Shown here: piece by piece, positions 21,532-33,873 of the stretch
How positions within the stretch are numbered: the stretch's first letter is position 1
How the letters are laid out: each line of letters begins with the position of its first letter
Source of the DNA: Paraglaciecola arctica BSs20135
GTDB taxonomy: Bacteria > Pseudomonadota > Gammaproteobacteria > Enterobacterales > Alteromonadaceae
Assembly: GCF_000314995.1 (NCBI RefSeq)
Contig: NZ_BAEO01000027.1
Span: 177,733-217,732, forward strand
Direction: 5' to 3'
DNA length: 40,000 bases
Made by a program: the position numbers and the translations under genes
Notes under the pieces: model-generated
The model's database searches: none
The model's input: only the letters and a program-made list of their open reading frames with translations
What the model was told of the DNA's origin: nothing

Positions 21532-22335
21532 ATGGAAAATGTATTACAGATTACTGAATCAGAGCAAGCGAATCGCTATATGGTACCTGGATTGGTCCGT
21601 GGATTGAAAATATTGCAGGCTTTTAGTAGTGAAAAACCTTTCATGGGCGTGTCAGATATAGCCAAAGAATTAAATGTGTCACGCTCAACGGCATTTCGTC
21701 TCTCCTTAACGCTAGAAAGTATGGGTTTTTTGAAACGTGTCGAACACTCAAAAAAGTATTGTTTAGGTTTAAAAGTCTTAGATCTTGGTTTTAAACTATT
21801 AGCTGGTATGGATATCGTTGACATTGCCAGGCCTCATATGGAGGAGCTAAGCGAAAGTACAAAAGTGTGTTCGCATCTTGCTGTGCGAGATGGAATTAGT
21901 GTGATCTATATTGCTAGAATACTAGGTAAGCATCACATTGTAAGTTCGGTTGGTGTGGGTACTCGTTTTCCAGCTTATGCTACGTCGTCTGGCCGAATAT
22001 TGCTCTCAAATCTATCTGTTGCTGAACTTGCCACTTTATACGAAGGTATTGAGTTAAAAAGAATCACGGAAAATACACCTATAACCATAGGTGATCTTAT
22101 TAATCAAATAGAACAAGATAAATCAAATGGCTACACATTGAGTTGGGAGTCGTACGAAGAAAATCTAGCGAGTCTTGCTGTGCCGATAAGAGATAATACC
22201 AAAAAAATCATTGCATCTCTTAATATTAGTTGCTCAACGACAACCTATAGTAAAGATGAATTATTGAAGCGAGTACTGCCGCAATTATTGCAAAAAGCGA
22301 CAAGTATCTCGACAGCTTTGGGTTATAGGAATTAA
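21532..22335 (+). CDS. IclR-family transcriptional regulator
   Basis: The 267-aa ORF has an N-terminal wHTH (VSDIAKELNVSRSTAFRLSLTLESMGFL) and a C-terminal IclR effector domain (GTRFPAYATSSGRILLS; NLASLAVPI). Confidence 0.9.
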   Translation: MENVLQITESEQANRYMVPGLVRGLKILQAFSSEKPFMGVSDIAKELNVSRSTAFRLSLTLESMGFLKRVEHSKKYCLGLKVLDLGFKLLAGMDIVDIARPHMEELSESTKVCSHLAVRDGISVIYIARILGKHHIVSSVGVGTRFPAYATSSGRILLSNLSVAELATLYEGIELKRITENTPITIGDLINQIEQDKSNGYTLSWESYEENLASLAVPIRDNTKKIIASLNISCSTTTYSKDELLKRVLPQLLQKATSISTALGYRN

Positions 22336-22409: not shown

Positions 22410-24566
22410 TCAGTTTTTGTTTTTTTGCCCCTCGAGTAAATCACAAAATTCGTCGTAGGGTACAGGACGGCTAAATAAATAACCTTGTGCAATATTGCAG
22501 TTATTTAGTTTAAGAAAATCTCTTTGTAATACCGTTTCAACGCCTTCGGCAATAACTTCTAATTTTAGGCTGTGGGCCATGGCAATGACTGCAAGTATGA
22601 TGGCGCCGTCACTGTCTTGGCTATTTTCGTTGATTTCGTTGATGAATGATCTATCTATTTTTAGCCGGTCGATGGGGAGTTTTTGTAAGTAAGAAAGTGA
22701 GCTGTAGCCTGTTCCAAAGTCGTCAATTGAGACGCTCATGCCTAATTTACGAACTTCATCTAGTAAATAATAGACTTTGTCGTAGTTGTCTATTAACACT
22801 CCTTCAGTGAGTTCTAATTCCAAATGATGTGGATTAACTTGCGCCTTGGTTACACTTTCTTTAATAAACTCGAACAATTGGCGATCGTTGACTTGGCGAG
22901 GCGACAAATTGATAGACAGTTTAATTTCTTCGCCTTTTTCAGCTAATCGTTTCAAGATGGCACAGGCCTCCGTAACCACCCATTTACCAATAGGAATGAT
23001 CAATCCTGTTTGTTCAGCCAATGGGATAAACTCGTCAGGTGGGACTAAATAGCCGTTTGGATGATGCCATCTAATTAAGGCTTCTGCTTTAATAATTTTG
23101 CCGCTCGCTAAGTCCAGCATAGGTTGCAAAAATAACTCAAATTCTTGGTTTTCGACGGCACTACGGAGAGAATTTTCCATATCAATACGTTTACGAGATG
23201 CGTCGATTAGCTCTTTGGAATAAAATTCAATACTACTCACTGCTTTTTTCTTTGCAGAATAGACCGCTAGGTCGGCATATTTCATTAATTCTTCTGCGCT
23301 ATTAGTGTCTGCTGGAAACGCCGTTGCACCAACATTTAATCCAACTTCACACTTCAACCCAGAACTTAAATAAAATGGTAAACAACTAACCCTAATCAAC
23401 TCCTCAGCAAATTTTATACACTGATTTTGGTCTTGTGACGAAATATGAGTATGTAAGTGATTGAGTTGCATGATCACCGCAAACTCAGTACCACCTATCC
23501 TAGCTATCATATCATCCACATGGGTGATGGCATTAAGCCGTTTCGACAAGTCTTTTATGACTTCGTCTCCTACAACGTGGCCATGTAATTCATTGATGCG
23601 TTTGAATTGTTTAATATCGATATACAATAGATAAAACGGACGGTTTTGCTGGATTTTGCTTTCAAGCTGTTGCCAAAAATACTGCCTATTGGGTAAATTT
23701 GTTAGTGCATCAAAATGAGTTAGTTTTTCGTTACGTTTAAGTAGGTATTTTACCTGAGTCACATCGCTAACACTAAATAACCAATTCTGAACTCTTTGCT
23801 CATCGTTTTTAATTGGATGAATAGATAATTTAAGCCACTTGCCCTGTTGTGGAGGATTTAACCAGTAAATTTCGCCGGTCCACGAACTTGCGGTAGAGAA
23901 AATACGCTCGCATTCGGGATATTGGGTTCTGAACAGTTCTAGTAACAATTTGTCTGGAGGTAGACCGATTTTTATATTTGTATCATCAAATAGCGTTCGC
24001 AACGCTGGATTGCTATTTAATAAGTGTAAATCAGCATCAAGTATTGCTACTGCTAAATCTGTTTGTGTTAATGCTTGAGCAATGGGTTGCTGCGCAGTTA
24101 GTGTTCGATTGGGCTGGCTAAGTAACTCTTCTAAGCGTGAGTGCAGATAGTCGTGTTGAGCAGATATTTTGTCGCTCGATAATAACAACTCACGTGCAAT
24201 TTGTAGGGTTTGTTGTTTTTGTCTATATTTTGCTTCTAGTTTACTGACGATTAAATAATTTTGCTTGTTAGCGACAACAGCCGAGGCTTCCAAGCGGACC
24301 AACTGAGTCGATAATTGTTCTGACCACAAACCAGATTCAATACGGCCATTTTTATTTGCTTGCCAAAGGTTTTCGGCGTCAATTAAAAAGTCTTCTAAAT
24401 AGGCTGAGTTTTGTGCAAAACAAAATACTTTGGTATCCACTATTTCTGGCAGTAATTCATCCAGCCAATTTCCTGCTCTATATAACACTTCAAATTTTGC
24501 GGAAGATAGCCGCCTAAATACAACACAATCTAATAAACCTAAAGCTGTAAGTAGTGAAGCGTCCAT
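22410..24566 (-). CDS. Multidomain c-di-GMP protein: N-terminal unknown domain, coiled coil, PAS-like, degenerate GGDEF (GGTEF), intact EAL; predicted phosphodiesterase
   Basis: The GGDEF-domain blocks are present (DALTNLPNR, YIDIKQFKRINELHGH), but the signature reads GGTEF (nt 23481-23495) and the RxxD I-site is absent. The EAL domain has EALIRW (23076-23084), DDFGTGYSSL, KIDRSF, EGVE and QGY. Confidence 0.9.
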   Translation of the reverse strand: MDASLLTALGLLDCVVFRRLSSAKFEVLYRAGNWLDELLPEIVDTKVFCFAQNSAYLEDFLIDAENLWQANKNGRIESGLWSEQLSTQLVRLEASAVVANKQNYLIVSKLEAKYRQKQQTLQIARELLLSSDKISAQHDYLHSRLEELLSQPNRTLTAQQPIAQALTQTDLAVAILDADLHLLNSNPALRTLFDDTNIKIGLPPDKLLLELFRTQYPECERIFSTASSWTGEIYWLNPPQQGKWLKLSIHPIKNDEQRVQNWLFSVSDVTQVKYLLKRNEKLTHFDALTNLPNRQYFWQQLESKIQQNRPFYLLYIDIKQFKRINELHGHVVGDEVIKDLSKRLNAITHVDDMIARIGGTEFAVIMQLNHLHTHISSQDQNQCIKFAEELIRVSCLPFYLSSGLKCEVGLNVGATAFPADTNSAEELMKYADLAVYSAKKKAVSSIEFYSKELIDASRKRIDMENSLRSAVENQEFELFLQPMLDLASGKIIKAEALIRWHHPNGYLVPPDEFIPLAEQTGLIIPIGKWVVTEACAILKRLAEKGEEIKLSINLSPRQVNDRQLFEFIKESVTKAQVNPHHLELELTEGVLIDNYDKVYYLLDEVRKLGMSVSIDDFGTGYSSLSYLQKLPIDRLKIDRSFINEINENSQDSDGAIILAVIAMAHSLKLEVIAEGVETVLQRDFLKLNNCNIAQGYLFSRPVPYDEFCDLLEGQKNKN

Positions 24567-24574
24567 GCGATCCT

Positions 24575-25066
24575 CTATTCAGTTAATATGTTAGCAAGAT
24601 GGGAAAACATGGCTTCAACACCATCGCCAGTTTTAGCGCTAGTATTAAAAAAACCATTAAAATTTTGTTTTATCTCGTTTACTTCCGCTACACTCCAGTG
24701 CCAACTTGCGGCTAAATCTGACTTGTTAACAGCCAATACCCCAGGAATGTCAGCCACTTCTTTAACCATTTTGAATATATCTAATCCTTCCACTAATGAT
24801 TGTGAACGTGTGTGGTCGGTTACAATAATAAAAGCCGATGCACCGCGTAAATATTTAGCTTGGAAACCACAGTAGCGATCAATGCCTTCAATGTCCCATA
24901 TCATTAATTGCACTGGGTGTTTGGCTGTTTCAATTTGTTTCTTGTCAATCTTTACGCCGATAGAAGTCAGATACTTTTCCGAGAAAATACCTTCTACGTA
25001 TTGTTTGACCAAGCTAGTTTTACCTACACCTGATGCACCTAACATGCATATTTTCTTCTGGATCAT
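24575..25066 (-). CDS. Ras-superfamily small GTPase (Rab/Roc/MglA-like, prokaryotic)
   Basis: The 163-aa ORF has G1 GASGVGKTS, switch-I YLTSIGV, G3 WDIEG, G4 NKSD and G5 TSAKTG. The SD of the downstream gene overlaps its stop codon. Confidence 0.88.
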   Translation of the reverse strand: MIQKKICMLGASGVGKTSLVKQYVEGIFSEKYLTSIGVKIDKKQIETAKHPVQLMIWDIEGIDRYCGFQAKYLRGASAFIIVTDHTRSQSLVEGLDIFKMVKEVADIPGVLAVNKSDLAASWHWSVAEVNEIKQNFNGFFNTSAKTGDGVEAMFSHLANILTE

Positions 25067-25137: not shown

Positions 25138-26901
25138 CTAACCACCTTCAAAATATACGACGTTAAACAGCACTTTCCGTGCACCTTCTTTGGTTGTTTT
25201 TAATTTTATAACGCCTAAACCGATAGCGTTTAAGCGGTTAGCCGCGACACCTAGATCCTGTAGTTTTAACTTGACTACGTCAGCACGTTTTTGACTCAAA
25301 ATTTTATTAAAAGATGCAGTGCCGACTGTATCGCTTGCGCCCATAATAATTAAACCTAGTGACAATTCTTGTTGTTCGGCTATTTCAATTAAATTATTAA
25401 ATTGCTCTTTAATGTCTATTAATTTTTCTAAATCCAGTTCAGACAAGTCACTTTTTCCAGGTTCAAATGAAATGGAAACCCGATCTATTTTTGCAATGTT
25501 TAAATCTAAAATAGCCCTAATCAACTCAGGATCATTGGCGGCTGTATTTTCTGTCCCTTCGATAATCAAATCGTCTAACAAAGTTGCCTGAAAATTGAGC
25601 CCCACCAGTTTTGCTAATTCTGCCTGTAAAAGCAATTTGTTTAAATTAGTGGATTTACCCTTAAATTTTGGAGAATTATCAACCCAGTCGATAGTGACAT
25701 TAGAGTAACGTGCAACAACAAGTTCGGTTTTATGTTTTATTAGCGATGGATCAAGGGATAAATAGGCTCTTTCTTTGAGTATCACTCGACTACTATCAAT
25801 CGACTGTTGTTCAAGCCATTCTTGAACTGATAGAGCCGCTGGGTCACGTAATACCTCAAGCTGTATTTGCTCTAGGCCTAAAGTGTCTATATTGGTAAGT
25901 AGAATACCGGGTGCTTTATCAATCGCACTTACTTGGTTCATCAGTTCATGTGACTGCCAACGTTTTACGAGTAAAAAACCGCAACCTATTAGGACCAATA
26001 AAACCACAGTCAACGCCATCCAAGGGCGTTTATCGGTGTTTGATTCAGGTTTTAGTACAGTCATCAGGCAGTCTCTTAACTGATGCTCACTATTATTAAA
26101 TGGTATTGAATCACCATTAAAATTGTCTAGCTCTTTATCGTATAGCTTGTGGATTTCTTCTAATGTCTGTTGCAGTTGATTCGCTACGCCCTGAGGCATA
26201 TTGCCGGTAATCGCCGCCACTACTGACGCTTTAGGGCCTTTTTTTAACAATAAAGTAAAATCATCAGTACGTACCACATCGAGATTCTGCTCAATTTTAC
26301 CCGAATTGGAAGTAAAGGAATCTGATACAAAATCGTTTATGGCCGTAAGCATAGACGAGACCATGTCTGCATCTGCTTTGAGCTCCAAACCCAAGGAAAC
26401 TGAATTTAATAAAAGCCCTGTTTCACGATGAATCAAAAAGACCTGTTCTACTCGAAAAGCAAAAGTTTGGCTAGCCGCGTATTGGGAAAATGTTACCCCA
26501 GATTGCCATGCTTTAAATCGCCATGAGAGGCCTTTAAGAGTTAGACTGTTTTCGATTAGTGTGTTGGTTTTTTCTAATAGTTCAGTAATAAATGCAGTAA
26601 CGTATTTTCTAACTAGGCTACCTATTAACGGATATAAATAACCAACAAACCTTTCACTATTAGCCTCAATTGATTTTTCAACTGATTTTTCAACTAGTGG
26701 TAAAAGTACTTTGTTCACCGAGCCATCTTGTCTTTCTCGGTCGTGTAATGCTTCAGAAAATACTTCTGAGACTAATTCTCGGGCATTGTCTTTTATAGTT
26801 TTGGTTACATGCTGTCCATTGCTACCCAATACCAATTCGCGGATTTGGCGCATTTGTTGGGTATCAGGTTTATTGGGTTGCTGCTCGTTTGAGTGTGCCA
26901 T
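25138..26901 (-). CDS. Bitopic envelope protein: cytoplasmic N-domain with Roadblock/LC7-like segment, one TM helix, periplasmic OmpA/MotB-type peptidoglycan-binding C-domain
   Basis: The 587-aa ORF has a TM helix at residues 293-312 (PWMALTVVLLVLIGCGFLLV, nt 25966-26025). The C-terminal OmpA-like domain spans residues ~472-585 (ISFEPGKSDLS...GASDTVG...NKILSQKRADVV...NRLNAIGLG). The Roadblock-like call for residues 147-253 is based on pattern only. Confidence 0.8.
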   Translation of the reverse strand: MAHSNEQQPNKPDTQQMRQIRELVLGSNGQHVTKTIKDNARELVSEVFSEALHDRERQDGSVNKVLLPLVEKSVEKSIEANSERFVGYLYPLIGSLVRKYVTAFITELLEKTNTLIENSLTLKGLSWRFKAWQSGVTFSQYAASQTFAFRVEQVFLIHRETGLLLNSVSLGLELKADADMVSSMLTAINDFVSDSFTSNSGKIEQNLDVVRTDDFTLLLKKGPKASVVAAITGNMPQGVANQLQQTLEEIHKLYDKELDNFNGDSIPFNNSEHQLRDCLMTVLKPESNTDKRPWMALTVVLLVLIGCGFLLVKRWQSHELMNQVSAIDKAPGILLTNIDTLGLEQIQLEVLRDPAALSVQEWLEQQSIDSSRVILKERAYLSLDPSLIKHKTELVVARYSNVTIDWVDNSPKFKGKSTNLNKLLLQAELAKLVGLNFQATLLDDLIIEGTENTAANDPELIRAILDLNIAKIDRVSISFEPGKSDLSELDLEKLIDIKEQFNNLIEIAEQQELSLGLIIMGASDTVGTASFNKILSQKRADVVKLKLQDLGVAANRLNAIGLGVIKLKTTKEGARKVLFNVVYFEGG

Positions 26902-26909
26902 TTTTCAGG

Positions 26910-27464
26910 CTACTCACCTTCATCTGTTGCAAGATCACTCGCCACTGTGGCCAGTAATTTAGCTAAGGTTTTACGATCCGTTTTAGATGAATTTAGCTCG
27001 CTAGACATTTGTGTGAGTTTTTCCAATGCCTGATTCAGCTGCTCGGTGAATTTCACCGTTAAGGTTTGAATTTCTTTGTCTAAGCGATTGTGTAAATCGT
27101 CATTTTCTTGTTTGCTGTTTGCTTCGGCCATTTCAAGCTCAGATGAAATTTTGTCAGCATAGCTATTTAATTCAGCTGTTTTTGCATCTTGGCCTTGATC
27201 GGCAATCGCAAGCTTATCTTCTAGTTGATTGAGGCCCTCGCGCATAGTGGCTTGTATACTTTGGGTGTTTTTTTCTATTGCTAGCTGCATTTTTTTAAAA
27301 CTGTCATCAGTATGCTGCTCTAACGCACTAATTCGTTCTTCTATATCACTTTTGGCCGCACCAAAAACAAGATGTCTTAAGCTTTCCAGCTCAGTTAAGG
27401 CTACTGATTCTGTAGTCGAAGGGGGTTGATTATTTGTGGTTGGAGCGTTTTTTTTATCAGCCAT
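26910..27464 (-). CDS. Coiled-coil protein (184 aa), first gene of the GTPase operon
   Basis: It has a low-complexity N-terminus followed by continuous heptad-rich helical sequence (IEERISALEQ..., LNQLEDKLAIADQ..., LDKEIQTLTVKFTEQLNQALEKLTQM). It has no TM segment or signal peptide. There is an 8-nt gap to the next gene. Confidence 0.7.
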   Translation of the reverse strand: MADKKNAPTTNNQPPSTTESVALTELESLRHLVFGAAKSDIEERISALEQHTDDSFKKMQLAIEKNTQSIQATMREGLNQLEDKLAIADQGQDAKTAELNSYADKISSELEMAEANSKQENDDLHNRLDKEIQTLTVKFTEQLNQALEKLTQMSSELNSSKTDRKTLAKLLATVASDLATDEGE

Positions 27465-27712: not shown

Positions 27713-28795
27713 ATGAAATATCAAGGTAGTCCTGCTTTTACCCATAAACAAAACGATAAAGTGGGGGTCTTGGTTACAAATTTAGGTACCCCCGATGCGC
27801 CTAAAAAAGCCGAATTAAGACGTTATTTAAAGGAATTTTTATCCGATCCTAGAGTGGTGGAAATACCTAGACTGCTGTGGTGGATGATTTTGAATTTAGT
27901 TATTTTGAATATTCGTCCTAAACGCTCTGCCAAAGCCTATTCTACGGTGTGGACTGAGCGTGGATCACCATTAATGTTTCATACTCAAGATCAAGCCAAT
28001 GCCTTGCGAAATAAATTACAGCAGCAATATGGTGATAATATAGTAGTGGATTTTGCGATGCGTTATGGCTCGCCTTCAGTGGATTCTGTGGTCGATAAAA
28101 TGTTACAGCAAGGTGTACGAAAATTAGTAGTGTTGCCGCTGTACCCACAATACTGTGCTTCAACTACAGCCTCTACTTTTGATGCTATTGCCCAGAGTTT
28201 CAGCAAAAGACGCTGGATCCCTGAACTTCGTTTTGTCACTCATTATCATGACAACCCCGACTATATAAAAGCAGTAGCCACTAAAATTCAAAACCATTGG
28301 GATCAACATGGACGAGCGGATAAATTAGTTTTTAGCTATCATGGTATTCCAAAACGTTACTTATTAAATGGTGACCCTTATCACTGCGAATGCCTTAAAA
28401 CCTCACGTTTAATCTCAGTAGCCTTGGGTCTAAAGGATAGTGAACACTTTACTAGCTTTCAATCACGTTTTGGTCGAGAGGAATGGCTAAAACCTTATAC
28501 TGATGATTCACTTAAGACATTTGCAGGGCAAGGTATTAAATCTGTACAAATCGTTTGCCCAGGATTCTCAGCTGATTGCTTAGAAACGATCGAAGAGATT
28601 GGTGAAGAGAACCGTGACTATTTTCTTGAAGCGGGCGGCGAACGTTATGAATATATTGCCGCACTTAATGCCGATAAAGAGCATATTCAAGCCCTTACTA
28701 ATATACTTGAGTCTCAGCTGCAGGGCTGGATAATAACACCAGAAAACACTGAACTACGAAATGAATTGGCAAAATCTATAGGCGCCGAAAAATAA
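27713..28795 (+). CDS. hemH: Ferrochelatase
   Basis: The 360-aa ORF has typical blocks: VLVTNLGTPDAP, YLKEFLSDPRVVE, VLPLYPQYCASTT, FSYHGIP, and SRFGREEWLKPYT...CPGFSADCLETIEEI. Confidence 0.95.
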   Translation: MKYQGSPAFTHKQNDKVGVLVTNLGTPDAPKKAELRRYLKEFLSDPRVVEIPRLLWWMILNLVILNIRPKRSAKAYSTVWTERGSPLMFHTQDQANALRNKLQQQYGDNIVVDFAMRYGSPSVDSVVDKMLQQGVRKLVVLPLYPQYCASTTASTFDAIAQSFSKRRWIPELRFVTHYHDNPDYIKAVATKIQNHWDQHGRADKLVFSYHGIPKRYLLNGDPYHCECLKTSRLISVALGLKDSEHFTSFQSRFGREEWLKPYTDDSLKTFAGQGIKSVQIVCPGFSADCLETIEEIGEENRDYFLEAGGERYEYIAALNADKEHIQALTNILESQLQGWIITPENTELRNELAKSIGAEK

Positions 28796-28986
28796 AAAAA
28801 GAGTTAAATTACACTGATGACCTAATAAGAACGGTTAGCCTGTGTGTGTTAATATGACTTTTACATTGTGATGTTACTCTCGTCATTGGGAATACAGAAT
28901 TAGTAAAATACTTATCAAATAATATTATAAAAAGCCGTATAGCCCCTTTAATAGGTGGATAAGACGGATGCAGAACAGGAACTTTA

Positions 28987-30261
28987 ATGTCTACACAAAA
29001 CCTCACAGACCAAGCTTTGGTCCACACCCCATTTTTTACTAACGATGCTACAGTTATGGGCATTTTGGCTATTTTACTGGGCTTAGTGTTTTACACTGCC
29101 AATAGTCAGGCTTCTTTTTGGCGCAAATTTTATATGTTTGTGCCCTCAGTATTACTTTGTTATTTCTTGCCATCGTTATTGAATACTTTTGGTTTAATAG
29201 ATGGTGAAAACTCCCAGCTTTATTTTGTGGCCTCGCGTTATCTATTGCCTGCCTGTTTAGTATTATTAACCATTAGTGTCGATCTAAAAGCGATAGCTAA
29301 GTTAGGCAGTAAAGCTGTTATTTTATTTTTTACTGGTACTTTGGGTATTGTGATTGGTGGGCCAATTGCGCTGCTGCTGGTGGCGACATTTTATCCTGAG
29401 TTGTTAGGTGTTGAAGGCCCGGACGCAGTTTGGCGAGGCATGACAACAGTTGCTGGAAGTTGGATTGGCGGTAGTGCCAACCAAGCCGCCATGAAGGAAA
29501 TTTATGGTGCCGGCGATCAGATGTTTTCGGCTATGGTGACGGTTGACATAATAGTGGCGAATCTATGGATGGCGGTGCTGTTAATTATGGCGGCAAATGC
29601 CAAAGCTATTGACGCAAAAACAGGTGCCGATACCTCAGCCATTGATGAACTCAAAGCTAAGGTAAAAAGTTTTCAGGCTGAACATTCACGTATTCCAAGC
29701 CTCACTGACATTATGTTAATTGTGGCAGTAGGACTTGGAGTAACGGGTTTTGCTCATATGTTTGCCGATACTATTACCCCATATTTTGTAGAAAATTATC
29801 CTGGATTAGCTAAGTTTAGCTTTCATAGTAAGTTTTTTTGGATGATTGTTTTTGCCAGTACTGTTGGTGTAGCGCTGTCTTTTACAAAAGTGCGTCAGTT
29901 AGAAGGAGCTGGCGCTTCTAAGATAGGTTCGGCTTTTTTGTATATCTTAATTGCTACCATAGGCATGAAGATGGACGTCACTATGATTGCCGAACAACCC
30001 TTGTTTTTTGTAATTGGTGCAATCTGGATGTTAATCCATGCCTCACTTATGTTGATTGTTGCCAAGTTAATCAAAGCACCGTTATTTTATATGGCGGTAG
30101 GTAGTCAAGCTAACGTGGGCGGTGCAGCTTCGGCACCTGTAGTGGCCTCGGCTTTTCATCCTTCACTGGCTCCAGTTGCGGTTATGTTAGCTGTATTAGG
30201 TTATACGGTTGGCACCTATATGGCTTGGTTCTGTGGGCAAATATTACAAAGCATAAATTGA
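28987..30261 (+). CDS. Polytopic inner-membrane protein (DUF819-like)
   Basis: The 424-aa ORF has about 11-12 hydrophobic segments. The GSWIGGSANQAAM and GSQANVGGAASAPVVA blocks match my recollection of the DUF819 family; this family assignment was not verified by a search. Confidence 0.7.
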   Translation: MSTQNLTDQALVHTPFFTNDATVMGILAILLGLVFYTANSQASFWRKFYMFVPSVLLCYFLPSLLNTFGLIDGENSQLYFVASRYLLPACLVLLTISVDLKAIAKLGSKAVILFFTGTLGIVIGGPIALLLVATFYPELLGVEGPDAVWRGMTTVAGSWIGGSANQAAMKEIYGAGDQMFSAMVTVDIIVANLWMAVLLIMAANAKAIDAKTGADTSAIDELKAKVKSFQAEHSRIPSLTDIMLIVAVGLGVTGFAHMFADTITPYFVENYPGLAKFSFHSKFFWMIVFASTVGVALSFTKVRQLEGAGASKIGSAFLYILIATIGMKMDVTMIAEQPLFFVIGAIWMLIHASLMLIVAKLIKAPLFYMAVGSQANVGGAASAPVVASAFHPSLAPVAVMLAVLGYTVGTYMAWFCGQILQSIN

Positions 30262-30271
30262 GTAATATATT

Positions 30272-30688
30272 ATGAACACGACTCTTCAAGCGCCTAAAGC
30301 TTTACTTAGGGCGCAAAAATTGGCTAATTTAACCGATACCAAATTTCGCATACCTTTGATAGGTATTCCTGTGGGGTTAGACTTTTTAGTAGGACTTATC
30401 CCTGTTGTAGGTGACTTAATAATGGTCGGGGTATCTTTGAGCATTGTGACTATGGCTAAAAGCATGCAGGTACCGCAAGCCTTAAGGATTGCGATGTTGC
30501 GAAATATAGGTATCGATTTTGTGCTTGGATTGATCCCGTTTGTGGGGGATGTAGTGGATTTGTTTTATAAATCTAACCAAAAAAACGTGCGTATTATGGA
30601 AAAATGGTGGGTTAGCCAGAATCATCAGGCAATCCAATCAAAAGGCCAGCAAACACTGCAAGAGTGGAAAAATTCCCAGGACAGCTAA
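30272..30688 (+). CDS. DUF4112-like small membrane protein
   Basis: The 138-aa ORF has a duplicated GLIPxxGD motif (VGLIPVVGDL and LGLIPFVGDV) and a KSNQKN tail motif. It starts 10 nt after the upstream gene. Confidence 0.7.
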   Translation: MNTTLQAPKALLRAQKLANLTDTKFRIPLIGIPVGLDFLVGLIPVVGDLIMVGVSLSIVTMAKSMQVPQALRIAMLRNIGIDFVLGLIPFVGDVVDLFYKSNQKNVRIMEKWWVSQNHQAIQSKGQQTLQEWKNSQDS

Positions 30689-30698
30689 AGTTGTACGC

Positions 30699-31082
30699 TT
30701 ATTCTGGGATACTGTGAGTTTGTAAATCTGCTAATTTGATAATGCTTAAACAGGCTTTGTTAGTCGCTGATAACACTACCTTTGGGGCGCAATTGGCAAT
30801 AAATGCTTCTTGCCAGCGAGCAGCGCACAAGCACCACTTATCTCCCTCTTTTAAGCCAGAAAATTGATATTGAGGCATTGCAGTGGATAAATCATTGCCT
30901 CTGGATAGTGAAAATTCAAGAAAATCTTGTGTGACAATTACGCAAACACTATGATTGCCATGATCATTGGAAGGCACGTAACAAAACCCTTCACGGGTAA
31001 AACCGGAATTTCCGCAACAAAGTTTTAGTGGTTTACCTAATACATTTTTTTCGTTTGCCATAGATATTCTCAGTTCATACAT
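30699..31082 (-). CDS. DUF2237-like protein
   Basis: NVLGKPLKLCC...GFTREGFC...DHGNHSVCV...FLEFSLSRGNDLS...GDKWCLCAARW matches the DUF2237 pattern as I recall it. The start may instead be the Met at 31061. Confidence 0.7.
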   Translation of the reverse strand: MYELRISMANEKNVLGKPLKLCCGNSGFTREGFCYVPSNDHGNHSVCVIVTQDFLEFSLSRGNDLSTAMPQYQFSGLKEGDKWCLCAARWQEAFIANCAPKVVLSATNKACLSIIKLADLQTHSIPE

Positions 31083-31320
31083 CTTAATAAGGATTGTGAC
31101 AGACTATACCAATATAGAGTATTAGTAATGGACTTGATGAAACCAGCAAATTAATTACTTGATGCATTAAAAGCGCAAAAGTATGCTTATCGGCGTTAAT
31201 TAGGAACTATGGGATTTTAAACAAACACCTGTATATCAAGACTTCCAAAATGTTATTGATTAAATTTTTTCACATTGAGTTTTGGCTTTAAGCACGATTC
31301 AATCTCACAGAAGAGCAAAT

Positions 31321-31929
31321 ATGAAAATATATGACACCAAAACAGCCCCCTCGCCAAGACGGGTTCGCATTTTTTTAGCTGAAAAAAATATTCCAATGGA
31401 ATATGTGCAAGTGGATCTACAAAAAGGTGAAAATATATCACCTCAAATGCGCGCTAAAAATCCAGTGGGTAAAATACCTGTTCTTGAACTAGACGATGGT
31501 ACTTGTATTAGTGAAGGTGCATCGATTTGTTTATATTTTGAAGAGTTATATCCAGAAATTAATCTATTGGGTAAAAATCCCCTAGAAAAAGCAACAATAG
31601 ACATGTGGCATCGGCAGGTTGAGCTGTACTTTTTTGGTCAGGTAGGTATGTGTTTTCAACATACAACTGGTTATTTTAAAGATCGTATGACACCGGTTAA
31701 AGAATACGGTGAAGTGGCGGGTAAAAACGCACTTGGCTTTCTTAAAGTGTTAGAAAGCCGTTTAGCAGAGTCAGAGTATATCGCCGCTGATCGCTTCACT
31801 ATAGCCGACATTACAGCTATGTGTGCAGTCGATTTTGCTCGAGTCGTCAATATTAAAATCACTGATGAGCAGACTAATCTGCAACGTTGGTATGCTGCTG
31901 TGAGTAGTCGCCCAAGTGCAAAGGCTTAA
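31321..31929 (+). CDS. Glutathione S-transferase
   Basis: It has an N-terminal thioredoxin-like GST fold (MKIYDTKTAPSPRRVRIFLAEKNI...NPVGKIPVLELDDG..ISEGASI) and a C-terminal alpha domain. I prefer the ATG at 31321 over the ORF-track start at 31282. Confidence 0.85.
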   Translation: MKIYDTKTAPSPRRVRIFLAEKNIPMEYVQVDLQKGENISPQMRAKNPVGKIPVLELDDGTCISEGASICLYFEELYPEINLLGKNPLEKATIDMWHRQVELYFFGQVGMCFQHTTGYFKDRMTPVKEYGEVAGKNALGFLKVLESRLAESEYIAADRFTIADITAMCAVDFARVVNIKITDEQTNLQRWYAAVSSRPSAKA

Positions 31930-32819
31930 TCTCGCCATCTTTTTGTGATGTCATCATAAGCATCGATTCTTCGGTCTCTAAAATACGGCCAGATACGTTT
32001 GATTTGTTCTGTGCGGCTAAGATCGATGTCGACAACTAAGTTTTCTTCTTTATCACTACTAGCTTGGGCGAGTATTTCGCCTTGTGGTCCAGCAATAAAA
32101 CTTTGCCCCCAAAACTGAATGCCTGCATCACCTGCTACTGGTGATGCCTCAAAACCTGTGCGGTTTGCGACTACCACTGGTAATGAATTAGCCACCGCAT
32201 GCGAGCGTTGTATGGTTTGCCATGCATCATGCTGGCGTGTTTGTTCTTCTGCAGTGTCGTTTTTGTCCCAGCCAATTGCAGTGGGATAAAACAACATTTC
32301 TGCACCTGCCATCGCCATCAACCTTGCTGCTTCTGGATACCATTGATCCCAGCATACCAACACCCCAAGTTTACCTACGCTGGTTTGAATCGGTTCAAAA
32401 CCTAGATCACCAGGCGTAAAATAAAACTTTTCGTAAAAACCTGGGTCATCGGGAATATGCATTTTACGATATTTGCCGACTAAACCTTGTTGGCGGTCAA
32501 ACACTACTGCAGTATTGTGATACAAACCCGAGCCACGTTTTTCAAATAATGAGGTGATAAGGACTATGTCTAATTTGGCGGCAAGAGCAGCAAAATAATC
32601 AGTGGCTGCACCAGGTATAGGTTCTGCCAAGTCGAAATAATCAGTGTTTTCTTGCTGGCAAAAATACAAGGTACTGTGCAACTCCTGTAGCATCACTAGC
32701 TCGCAACCCTGCGAAGCTAAAACGCTGACTTGTTCGGCACTGCGCGCCCAGTTCACATCTTTATCATTACTGGCAACGGCTTGTTGTACCACGCCGACTT
32801 TTAAACTACTTTTCTTCAT
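31926..32819 (-). CDS. aguB: N-carbamoylputrescine amidase (C-N hydrolase family)
   Basis: The diagnostic blocks are YRKMHIPDDPGFYEKFYFTPGDLGF, VCWDQWYPEAARLMA, YPTAIGW and WPYFRDRRIDAYD. I prefer the start MKKSSLKVGVVQQ at 32819, which gives a 14-nt overlap with aguA. The ORF-track start at 32909 would run 104 nt into aguA. Confidence 0.92.
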   Translation of the reverse strand: MKKSSLKVGVVQQAVASNDKDVNWARSAEQVSVLASQGCELVMLQELHSTLYFCQQENTDYFDLAEPIPGAATDYFAALAAKLDIVLITSLFEKRGSGLYHNTAVVFDRQQGLVGKYRKMHIPDDPGFYEKFYFTPGDLGFEPIQTSVGKLGVLVCWDQWYPEAARLMAMAGAEMLFYPTAIGWDKNDTAEEQTRQHDAWQTIQRSHAVANSLPVVVANRTGFEASPVAGDAGIQFWGQSFIAGPQGEILAQASSDKEENLVVDIDLSRTEQIKRIWPYFRDRRIDAYDDITKRWRD

Positions 32820-33873
32820 AGACACGGACTCCATTGGCGAAGGATTGCAAAATTTCTGGTTTAAGTATGCCACAAGGTATTTGCATACTAATACAATGCA
32901 AGCTACCAAACTGTTGAACTAATGGCAGGCAATTTATCGGCACTATAGTAAATTCTGGGTAGGCTGTTTGCATTATTTGCATAGCTAACTTATCTTCTGG
33001 TTGTTGATAAATAGGGCACAGAATATGTTGGTTAGAAATCAAAAAATTGGCATAGGAAGCAGGAAGTCTGTCGCCATGTGAATTAACTATCTGTGGTAAC
33101 GGTAATTCAAATATTTGGTGAGTGGGTAACACTTGCTGACATTCTTTAACTAAGGCGGCTAACCCAATAAAATGGCTGTCTTCTGGGCGATTAAAAGCCG
33201 ATTGAATAACCAGACCATTATCTGGCGTAAAACGTACTAAGGTATCAATATGCCCGTCAGTATCGTCACCTTCTAGATGCCCATTTTGTAAAATAATACT
33301 TTGTTTAGCGCCCAGAAAATTCTGAAAGACTTGCTGATATTCTGCAATAGACTTATTACCATTTCGTTTAGGATTAGTCAGGCAAAGTTCGGTAGATAAC
33401 AAAGTGCCATATTGATCAATTTCTAATGCCCCACCTTCCACTACTAAATCAACTGATTTAATTGCTTGCTGACATAGTTGGCTGAGTACATCTTGATTAA
33501 TCTTATTGTCTTTAGCTGCATCAAATTTTTGTCCCCAACCATTAAAAGCAAATTCGATTGGTTGCAAAGCTGATTCATTTGCACAGCTTAAAAAGCCGTA
33601 GTCTCTTATCCAAGTATCATTGTAATCAGCTTTGACTACTAATATTTGCGCTGATTTATTTAGTTTGTTCAAACAATTTTTGATTTCGCTACTGCGTACT
33701 AACAACACAACATTAGTTTTAGCTTGGTTGAGTGATTCAATGATCTTTAGATAAACGTTTTGCACGTCATCAAGCCAAGGCTTCCAATCGGTATGTTGAT
33801 CCGGCCATACCAGCATAACGGCGTCTTGTTGAGTCCACTCGGGTAACAGTTGGTAATTGTCAGTCATGCACAT
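32806..33873 (-). CDS. aguA: Agmatine deiminase
   Basis: The 355-aa ORF has PEWTQQDAVMLVWP, TWIRDYG, LEGDDTDGHIDTLVRF and a C-terminal catalytic-Cys block (GSLHCISMQ). Confidence 0.9.
   Translation of the reverse strand: MCMTDNYQLLPEWTQQDAVMLVWPDQHTDWKPWLDDVQNVYLKIIESLNQAKTNVVLLVRSSEIKNCLNKLNKSAQILVVKADYNDTWIRDYGFLSCANESALQPIEFAFNGWGQKFDAAKDNKINQDVLSQLCQQAIKSVDLVVEGGALEIDQYGTLLSTELCLTNPKRNGNKSIAEYQQVFQNFLGAKQSIILQNGHLEGDDTDGHIDTLVRFTPDNGLVIQSAFNRPEDSHFIGLAALVKECQQVLPTHQIFELPLPQIVNSHGDRLPASYANFLISNQHILCPIYQQPEDKLAMQIMQTAYPEFTIVPINCLPLVQQFGSLHCISMQIPCGILKPEILQSFANGVRVYEEK

Follow-up and report, generated by a model that had tools for sequence, protein, structure and literature searches.

A longin/Roadblock-type fold predicted for the cytoplasmic domain of an OmpA-anchored protein encoded beside a Group 1 Rup GTPase

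Introduction

In a 40,000-nucleotide stretch of the Paraglaciecola arctica BSs20135 genome (contig NZ_BAEO01000027.1, positions 177,733 to 217,732 of the forward strand; hereafter the window), the open reading frame (ORF) 25138..26901 on the minus strand encodes a 587-residue membrane protein that ends in an OmpA-like domain. It is the second of four tightly packed minus-strand genes, separated along the cassette by gaps of 8, 71 and 8 nucleotides (nt), and the gene directly downstream encodes a small GTPase. The locus raises the question of what the large cytoplasmic part of the OmpA-type protein is and whether it could be a partner of the neighbouring GTPase. An earlier inspection of the DNA, made without database searches and referred to here as the sequence-only reading, had seen a Roadblock/LC7 domain of the MglB kind in this part of the protein and had proposed it as the regulator of the GTPase.

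On sequence grounds, the cassette is a member of the Group 1 Rup system described by Wuichet and Søgaard-Andersen 2014 (PMC4316618). In that system, neighbouring genes encode a coiled-coil protein, a protein in which an unknown domain is followed by a transmembrane segment and an OmpA domain, the Rup GTPase, and an output protein for signalling, of the GGDEF/EAL or kinase type. In the same study, the cytoplasmic domain of the OmpA protein was labelled 'unknown function', none of the Rup GTPases (0/121) was coupled to an MglB homolog, and Group 1 Rup was placed closest to the eukaryotic Rab/Ras/Rho/Ran GTPases. The N-terminal region of the Rup output protein was described as carrying an invariant glutamine, proposed to act in trans (PMC4316618).

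Predicted fold of the cytoplasmic domain

Structure prediction indicates that residues 138-276 of the 587-residue protein adopt the longin/Roadblock superfold. Two AlphaFold2 runs were made, one on the full-length protein with 89 sequences (mean predicted local distance difference test score, pLDDT, 84.8) and one on residues 125-292 alone with 36 sequences (mean pLDDT 84.6, predicted template modelling score 0.75). The runs differed in alignment and in length and gave the same topology. A helix (138-146) is followed by two strands (147-158 and 164-169) joined by an RETG turn, by a central helix (178-196) that begins after D177-A-D179, by three further strands (209-211, 216-221 and 225-233) and by two C-terminal helices (237-259 and 266-276). 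Confidence was high in the sheet (pLDDT >90) and in the C-terminal helices.

The peptide that had been read as a Roadblock domain is present in this ORF on the minus strand, with a slip of one residue: the string as written had 108 residues and covers 147-254, while the coordinates 26143-26463 correspond to 147-253. Its order of secondary structure elements, inferred by eye, was reproduced by both AlphaFold2 runs in the core, to which the models add helix 138-146 before the first strand and helix 266-276 at the end. The predicted order is the alpha-beta-beta-alpha-beta-beta-beta(-alpha) arrangement of Roadblock domains. Taken with the two C-terminal helices, the predicted core also has the beta-beta-alpha-beta-beta-beta-alpha-alpha order of longin domains.

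The domain model was compared with the Protein Data Bank (PDB) using Foldseek. All of the 50 best matches listed were longin or Roadblock domains, and no GAF or PAS structure was among these 50. Template modelling (TM) scores normalised to the target (TMt) ranged from 0.5 to 0.69, and the matches with TMt 0.6-0.69 had a root mean square deviation (rmsd) of 3.4-4 Å. The longin matches included adaptor and coat subunits, namely sigma-adaptins (9ddt_B, E=1.5e-4, TMt 0.69; 4p6z_S) and zeta-COP; the TRAPP subunits Bet5, Trs23 and sedlin; Mon1-Ccz1, Fuzzy/Inturned and SRX of the signal recognition particle (SRP) receptor; and the longin domains of the SNAREs Sec22b (2nut_C, TMt 0.67) and VAMP7, with TMt of 0.67-0.68. 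Further top longin matches were 9qpq_P, 1ifq_B (TMt 0.68), 3cue_A, 2j3t_C and 5ldd_B. On the Roadblock side were the LAMTOR subunits of Ragulator, Ego3 (4fuw_B), the chains 5y39_G, 5x6v_B, 5x6v_F, 6b9x_B and 9jq8_A, and an Asgard Roadblock protein (9jue_C) with E=6e-3, TMt 0.63, rmsd 3.4 Å over 108 columns and 21% identity.

The longin domains scored as well as or better than the Roadblock domains, and the best and longest matches (sigma-adaptin, Sec22b, TRAPP) were longin-type; in these model comparisons, longin fits the domain at least as well as Roadblock. The fold proposed in the sequence-only reading therefore stands at the level of the longin/Roadblock superfold, although its closest structural counterparts are longins. 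When the full-length model was searched, the OmpA domain dominated the results, yet the TRAPP longin 3cue_A recurred (E=1.7e-4). The case for the fold rests on the fact that all listed matches come from one superfold, together with their TMt of 0.5-0.69.

Conservation was evaluated in 116 sequences. At least 85% of them retain V151, E152, Q153, H158, T161, G162, S182, M184, T186, D190, D194, S195, F196, G233, G263 and D264. In the central helix, S182, T186, D190 and D194 form a near-invariant polar stripe at i, i+4 spacing, which occupies one face of the helix apart from the hydrophobic residues M184, L185, I188 and F191.

Sequence and profile searches

Membership of the Roadblock/LC7 family was examined with several sequence methods. 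By hmmscan at E<=10, Robl_LC7 (PF03259) matched neither the protein, nor the 107-residue segment 147-253, nor any of 36 family members, while the positive controls DYNLRB1 (E=2.9e-26) and LAMTOR2 (E=1.4e-19) were recovered. Among the longin-type Pfam families, a single match was obtained in one of the 36 members (Fuz_longin_1, E=0.095), which falls short of membership. No GAF or PAS Pfam match was found in the domain region of the protein or of the 36 members. A match to FliG_C (E=0.01) was rejected as noise, being below the cut-off and confined to one of the 36. Searches of the PDB sequences by phmmer and hmmsearch with the protein and two family profiles returned no Roadblock or longin chain.

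Direct comparisons gave the same result. BLASTP against MglB yielded E>=26, and hhalign against an alignment of the MglB family gave a probability of 0.2%. A 116-sequence query aligned with DYNLRB1, LAMTOR2, LAMTOR3, AP2S1 and MglB gave probabilities below 1% in every case (AP2S1, 0.6%). The MglB sequence used was 100% identical to PDB 6h5b_B, and the control sequences were validated by Pfam. The MglB alignment, built from the best 120 matches, was shallow (>=69% identity), and the hhalign tests are of limited power because the target profiles are shallow. The 'signature' motifs that had been read as typical of Roadblock domains were not above chance by BLASTP, Pfam or hhalign, and assignment to the PF03259, MglB-like family failed every sequence and profile test. 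Since all of the sequence tests were negative, the assignment is one of fold rather than of PF03259 membership. The check that had been proposed for it, Pfam together with AlphaFold and Foldseek, gave a split outcome, with no Robl_LC7 match on the one hand and a structural match to longin/Roadblock folds with modest scores on the other.

Family spread and coupling to the GTPase gene

The cytoplasmic part of the protein is a large family that has no Pfam or NCBIfam model; over the first ~330 residues of the 587-residue protein, neither collection gave a match. An exhaustive HMMER search recovered 5835 cluster representatives at E<=1e-3, of which 1661 also passed E<=1e-30, a word-index search found 260 homologs of the whole protein, and a scan of species-representative genomes identified carriers of the domain in at least 586 species-level genomes. 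The carriers belong to the Gammaproteobacteria, Acidobacteriota, Gemmatimonadota, Cyanobacteria, Bacteroidota, Verrucomicrobiota, Binatia and Zetaproteobacteria, among others. In that scan, the identity of the window to Paraglaciecola arctica and related Paraglaciecola genomes came to about 92%. One protein, P0241 (2171 residues), has three copies of the domain plus CARDB and DUF5915 matches, a layout far from the form with a transmembrane segment and an OmpA domain.

The gene neighbourhood was analyzed in a sample of 83 loci (L001-L083), in 81 of which the OmpA-type gene could be called. In all of these (81/81), the next gene downstream on the same strand encodes a Ras-like GTPase, with gaps of mostly -46 to +138 nt. 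A homolog of the coiled-coil gene is directly upstream of the OmpA-type gene in 66/83 loci, a homolog of the output-protein N-domain is found downstream in 53 of the 83, and the same cassette gene order recurs in related loci. Among the 3380 ORFs of these neighbourhoods, no canonical Roadblock protein was found, even at E<=10, and the domain is therefore the only one of that fold detected there.

The GTPase and the output enzyme

The GTPase of the window has G1 GASGVGKTS, G4 NKSD and G5 SAK, and its G3 motif, WDIEGI, is devoid of the catalytic glutamine. The family motifs are GxxxxGKT/S, T, DxxG, NKxD and SAK, with G1, G2, G4 and G5 kept. At the position equivalent to Ras Q61, the residue after DxxG, none of the 81 family sequences has Q; the residue is E, I, N, A, V, R, K or T instead. 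That the catalytic glutamine is missing means that these GTPases need help in trans, as also argued in PMC4316618. The position equivalent to Ras G12 is phenylalanine in 46 of the 81 sequences and serine in the GTPase of the window. The changes at the G12 and Q61 positions would both block the chemistry of a classical Ras GTPase-activating protein (GAP); together they suggest that hydrolysis follows an uncommon mechanism or that the switch is very slow.

The output enzyme encoded by the fourth gene begins with a conserved domain in which S78, G79, W81, E83, A94, A96, Q122 and R125 are near-invariant. Of 53 homologs, 50 keep Q122, with a gap in two of the others and L in the third, and 46 keep R125. 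This N-domain was retained in the 53 loci whatever the catalytic domain that follows. In other loci the output slot is occupied by PAS-GGDEF-EAL proteins, HD-GYP-type HD_5 proteins, histidine and hybrid kinases, a class III cyclase, PP2C or PAS-only proteins. A variable output slot with a constant N-terminal adapter is as expected for the effectors of a GTPase switch, and the N-domain is probably the GTPase-binding adapter.

Additionally, a second, different N-domain without annotation was seen in ORFs just downstream of the GTPase gene (loci L028, L074 and L059). It shows the pattern GMLPL...ADV.L...W.L.LD.T and stands at the start of PAS-only, cyclase and kinase outputs. It was found in Acidobacteriota, Zetaproteobacteria and Binatia, and the L059 protein has both N-domain types in tandem.

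Possible function of the domain

We consider it somewhat probable that residues ~138-276 serve as a membrane-tethered docking and regulatory platform for the downstream Group 1 Rup GTPase. The longin/Roadblock-type domain would hold the GTPase at the envelope and would bias its nucleotide state, in a manner resembling either an exchange factor for guanine nucleotides (GEF) or a co-GAP. By analogy with other longin/Roadblock domains, it may dimerise and work jointly with the coiled-coil protein encoded upstream. The nucleotide bias could be governed by the state of the periplasmic BON-like/OmpA part. The GTP-bound GTPase would engage the N-domain of the PAS-GGDEF-EAL enzyme and thereby alter cyclic di-GMP (c-di-GMP) turnover, and Q122 and R125 of that N-domain may supply the catalytic residues that the GTPase lacks. 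In this scheme, we infer the binding of the GTPase, the direction of signalling and the distribution of GAP and GEF roles among the partners. Beside the fold and the synteny, the polar stripe of the central helix supports a role of the domain in docking the GTPase. Helix alpha2 of MglB, the equivalent of this central helix, is reported to contact MglA (Miertzschke et al. 2011). In a mirror-tree comparison, the cytoplasmic parts followed the GTPase in evolutionary distance (r=0.85 in the case of residues 13-134 and r=0.80 in that of the domain) more closely than the periplasmic parts did (r=0.64-0.65), which also favours the proposal.

Several observations weigh against this proposal. No sequence or profile method ties the domain to the Roadblock or longin families. 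The E-values of the Foldseek matches are modest, from 1e-4 to 1e-2, with just three matches at E<=1e-3. In the domain-only model, the central helix, the putative docking surface, reaches a pLDDT of only 63-68, a value that could also be anticipated of an interface. The phenylalanine found at the G12 position argues, from sequence, against a classical arginine-finger GAP. The trans-acting glutamine was placed in the output protein and not in the OmpA-type protein (PMC4316618), and the conserved Gln and Arg of the output N-domain are strong rivals for the GAP role. Finally, the mirror-tree comparison with the GTPase does not single out the domain, whose partial r was 0.26 against 0.56 for residues 13-134; the test is weak, being confounded by shared phylogeny and by differing evolutionary rates.

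One alternative is that the longin/Roadblock fold serves only for dimerisation or assembly, with the GTPase regulated by residues 13-134, by the coiled-coil protein or by the output N-domain alone. Many Roadblock domains, LC7 and the LAMTOR subunits among them, serve mainly as dimeric scaffolds. Residues 13-134 show the highest partial correlation, W127 and R128 of the helix preceding the domain are invariant, and the proposed trans-catalytic residues are carried by the output N-domain. However, a pure dimer interface would not call for the degree of conservation seen in the polar stripe of the central helix and in H158 and R159 of the hairpin, the coupling to the GTPase gene is absolute in the loci sampled, and the mirror-tree values lend little to this explanation for the reasons just given. 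We regard a purely structural role as unlikely, though far from negligible.

Two further explanations concern the nature of the domain itself, and each is given very little probability. One is that it is a small-molecule or signal sensor of the profilin-like fold class, similar to GAF or PAS, with no direct role in the GTPase cycle. Longin, Roadblock, GAF and PAS domains have a common strand order and sandwich architecture (the profilin-like fold of SCOP), and E152, Q153 and H158, which are polar residues of the first strand, look buried and could line a pocket. Yet neither the 50 best structural matches listed nor the Pfam searches of the 36 members gave a GAF or PAS signal, and a sensor of this type would leave the strict synteny with the GTPase unexplained. 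The other, judged just as improbable, is that the fold assignment is an artefact, either of a wrong AlphaFold2 model or of a generic two-layer alpha/beta sandwich without functional meaning. Sequence-level support is zero, the structure comparison was made by one method, Foldseek, and alongside its modest E-values the query-normalised TM scores are about 0.4-0.55. Against an artefact stand the identical topology and sheet confidence of two runs with different alignments and lengths, the absence of any mixture of superfolds among the 50 best matches, and TMt values that reach 0.6-0.69.

The platform proposed here can be put in a stronger form, in which the domain is a true, though highly divergent, regulator of longin/Roadblock type that acts on the Group 1 Rup GTPases as a GEF or co-GAP. 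We put this forward tentatively, as possible and on present evidence rather doubtful. If it is true, bacteria already possessed the combination of a Ras/Rab-like GTPase and a longin-type platform that is seen in TRAPP, Mon1-Ccz1 and DENN. The platform would be part of a transmembrane sensor anchored in the cell wall, which would fix the switch at the envelope and drive outputs through c-di-GMP and other second messengers.

Comparison with known systems

The window has all four genes of the Group 1 Rup cassette, a GTPase without the G3 glutamine, and an output protein in which the conserved glutamine was recovered as Q122. It differs from the published description in two respects: the 'unknown' domain is predicted here to have a longin/Roadblock fold, and the outputs are wider than described, including HD-GYP-type, class III cyclase, PP2C and PAS-only proteins.

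MglB, a Roadblock/LC7 GAP, and its bacterial Ras-like GTPase MglA offer a parallel in arrangement, with an alpha-beta-beta-alpha-beta-beta-beta(-alpha) core, a gene beside that of a small GTPase and a central helix that is the most conserved element. However, no sequence relationship between MglB and the domain is detectable. MglB is soluble and stands alone, whereas the domain is fused to helices, a transmembrane segment and OmpA; its partner is a Rup GTPase and not a member of the MglA family; and it has two C-terminal helices, as longins do.

The eukaryotic longin platforms (sigma-adaptin and zeta-COP with Arf1, Bet5/Trs23 of TRAPP with Ypt1, Mon1-Ccz1 with Ypt7, and SRX with SR-beta) all serve Ras-superfamily GTPases as partners or regulators. 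They align with the domain over 120-166 columns, at the TMt range given above (0.5-0.69), with the sheet and both C-terminal helices covered. In contrast to the domain, they usually act as heterodimers or within large complexes, and none is fused to an anchor for peptidoglycan; they have 5-18% identity to it and no profile match, and the extra N-terminal helix of the domain is atypical for longins.

In the actinobacterial conservon (CvnA-D / Mfp), a membrane kinase, a Roadblock protein, a DUF742 protein and an MglA-like GTPase are encoded together. As here, a membrane-proximal sensor, a protein of Roadblock fold and a small GTPase make up one signalling cassette. The differences are that the Roadblock protein of the conservon is separate and recognisable by sequence, that the GTPase is of the MglA family, and that the membrane component is a histidine kinase and not an OmpA-anchored protein. 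The analogy between the Rup system and the conservon has already been drawn (PMC4316618), and MfpD is described as a Roadblock dimer (PMC13015309). Anchors of the Pal / MotB / YiaD type share the C-terminal OmpA-like fold and sequence family with the protein of the window; unlike it, they are without a cytoplasmic longin/Roadblock domain and have no GTPase link.

The Group 1 Rup system itself is already known. The fold assignment and the implied longin/Roadblock-type partner for Rup GTPases appear to be new; in our literature searches, no earlier or later report of a longin/Roadblock fold for the 'unknown' domain of the Rup partner was found. Group 1 Rup GTPases are widespread and have no known regulator. 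If their obligate neighbour conceals a domain of longin/Roadblock fold, this would give a specific and testable candidate for the missing regulator, and would bring the Rup lineage under the rule by which small GTPases are paired with longin or Roadblock platforms. It would also suggest a route from the state of the envelope or peptidoglycan, through the GTPase switch, to c-di-GMP, cyclic nucleotide, kinase or phosphatase outputs.

Layout of the protein and the cassette

The features of the cassette are collected in Table 1.

Table 1. Coordinates of the four genes and of their domains in the window
Feature	Position	Strand	Description
Gene 1	26910..27464	-	184 residues; predicted coiled-coil cytoplasmic protein; only weak coiled-coil-type Pfam matches
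Gene 2	25138..26901	-	587-residue single-pass membrane protein; in order, cytoplasmic helical region, longin/Roadblock-like domain, transmembrane helix, periplasmic BON-like region, OmpA domain
Gene 2, residues 13-134	26500..26865	-	long cytoplasmic helices; AlphaFold2 pLDDT 58-85 (lower model confidence)
Gene 2, residues 138-276	26074..26490	-	longin/Roadblock-like domain, predicted (AlphaFold2, Foldseek); encloses 26143-26463
Gene 2, residues 294-316	25954..26022	-	sole strongly hydrophobic segment, read as transmembrane helix
Gene 2, residues 333-447	25561..25905	-	periplasmic alpha/beta region, possibly BON-like; AlphaFold2 pLDDT ~95
Gene 2, residues 458-585	25147..25530	-	OmpA-like domain, predicted to bind peptidoglycan
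Gene 3	24575..25066	-	163-residue Ras/Rab-like small GTPase, Group 1 Rup type; Pfam Ras E=1.5e-29
Gene 4	22410..24566	-	718-residue output enzyme; unannotated N-domain, then PAS, GGDEF, EAL
Gene 4, residues 1-165	24072..24566	-	conserved N-terminal adapter domain (putative); no Pfam family

The C-terminus of the OmpA-type protein belongs to the OmpA-like family by sequence and by model, and is a predicted peptidoglycan binder. Pfam OmpA (PF00691), the sole Pfam domain of the protein, matched residues 479-572 with E=9.1e-9 and 36 bits against a cut-off of 27.2, the PDB sequence matches of this part were OprF and Pal, and Foldseek matched OmpA, Pal and OprF in their C-terminal domains (E~1e-6, TMt 0.67-0.83). 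Residues 333-447 are predicted as two small alpha/beta units; they gave no Pfam match in the 587-residue protein, and in longer homologs BON domains were detected at the equivalent place, before OmpA. The Kyte-Doolittle plot peaks at 2.67 at residue 294, the AlphaFold2 helix spans 294-329, and no signal-like segment was seen at the N-terminus. Because the OmpA domain must reach the peptidoglycan, residues 1-290 should, by this topology, be cytoplasmic. Pfam, AlphaFold2 and hydrophobicity agree with the earlier view of the segment as lying on the cytoplasmic side of a protein that crosses the membrane once and ends in an OmpA domain. Within the helical region that precedes the domain, P91, G94, R98 and N113 are conserved in addition to the invariant W127 and R128.

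In the output enzyme, EAL (E=2.7e-73) and GGDEF (E=4.8e-33) were identified by Pfam, and PAS_4 remained just below the threshold (E=1e-4, 22.9 bits against a cut-off of 23.1). The 184-residue coiled-coil protein weakly matches the long ZorA tail (PADLOC, E~2e-4) as well as apolipoprotein-type repeats, and these matches are probably compositional. An origin of the cassette as a defence system was rejected, since PADLOC gave only these weak coiled-coil matches to ZorA for this protein. A scan for promoters and terminators gave nothing above chance. No signs of mobile elements were seen among the genes on either side of the cassette (21532-22335 and 27713-32909), which are unrelated to it and encode an IclR regulator, ferrochelatase, DUF819, DUF4112, DUF2237, GST and CN_hydrolase (carbon-nitrogen hydrolase) proteins.

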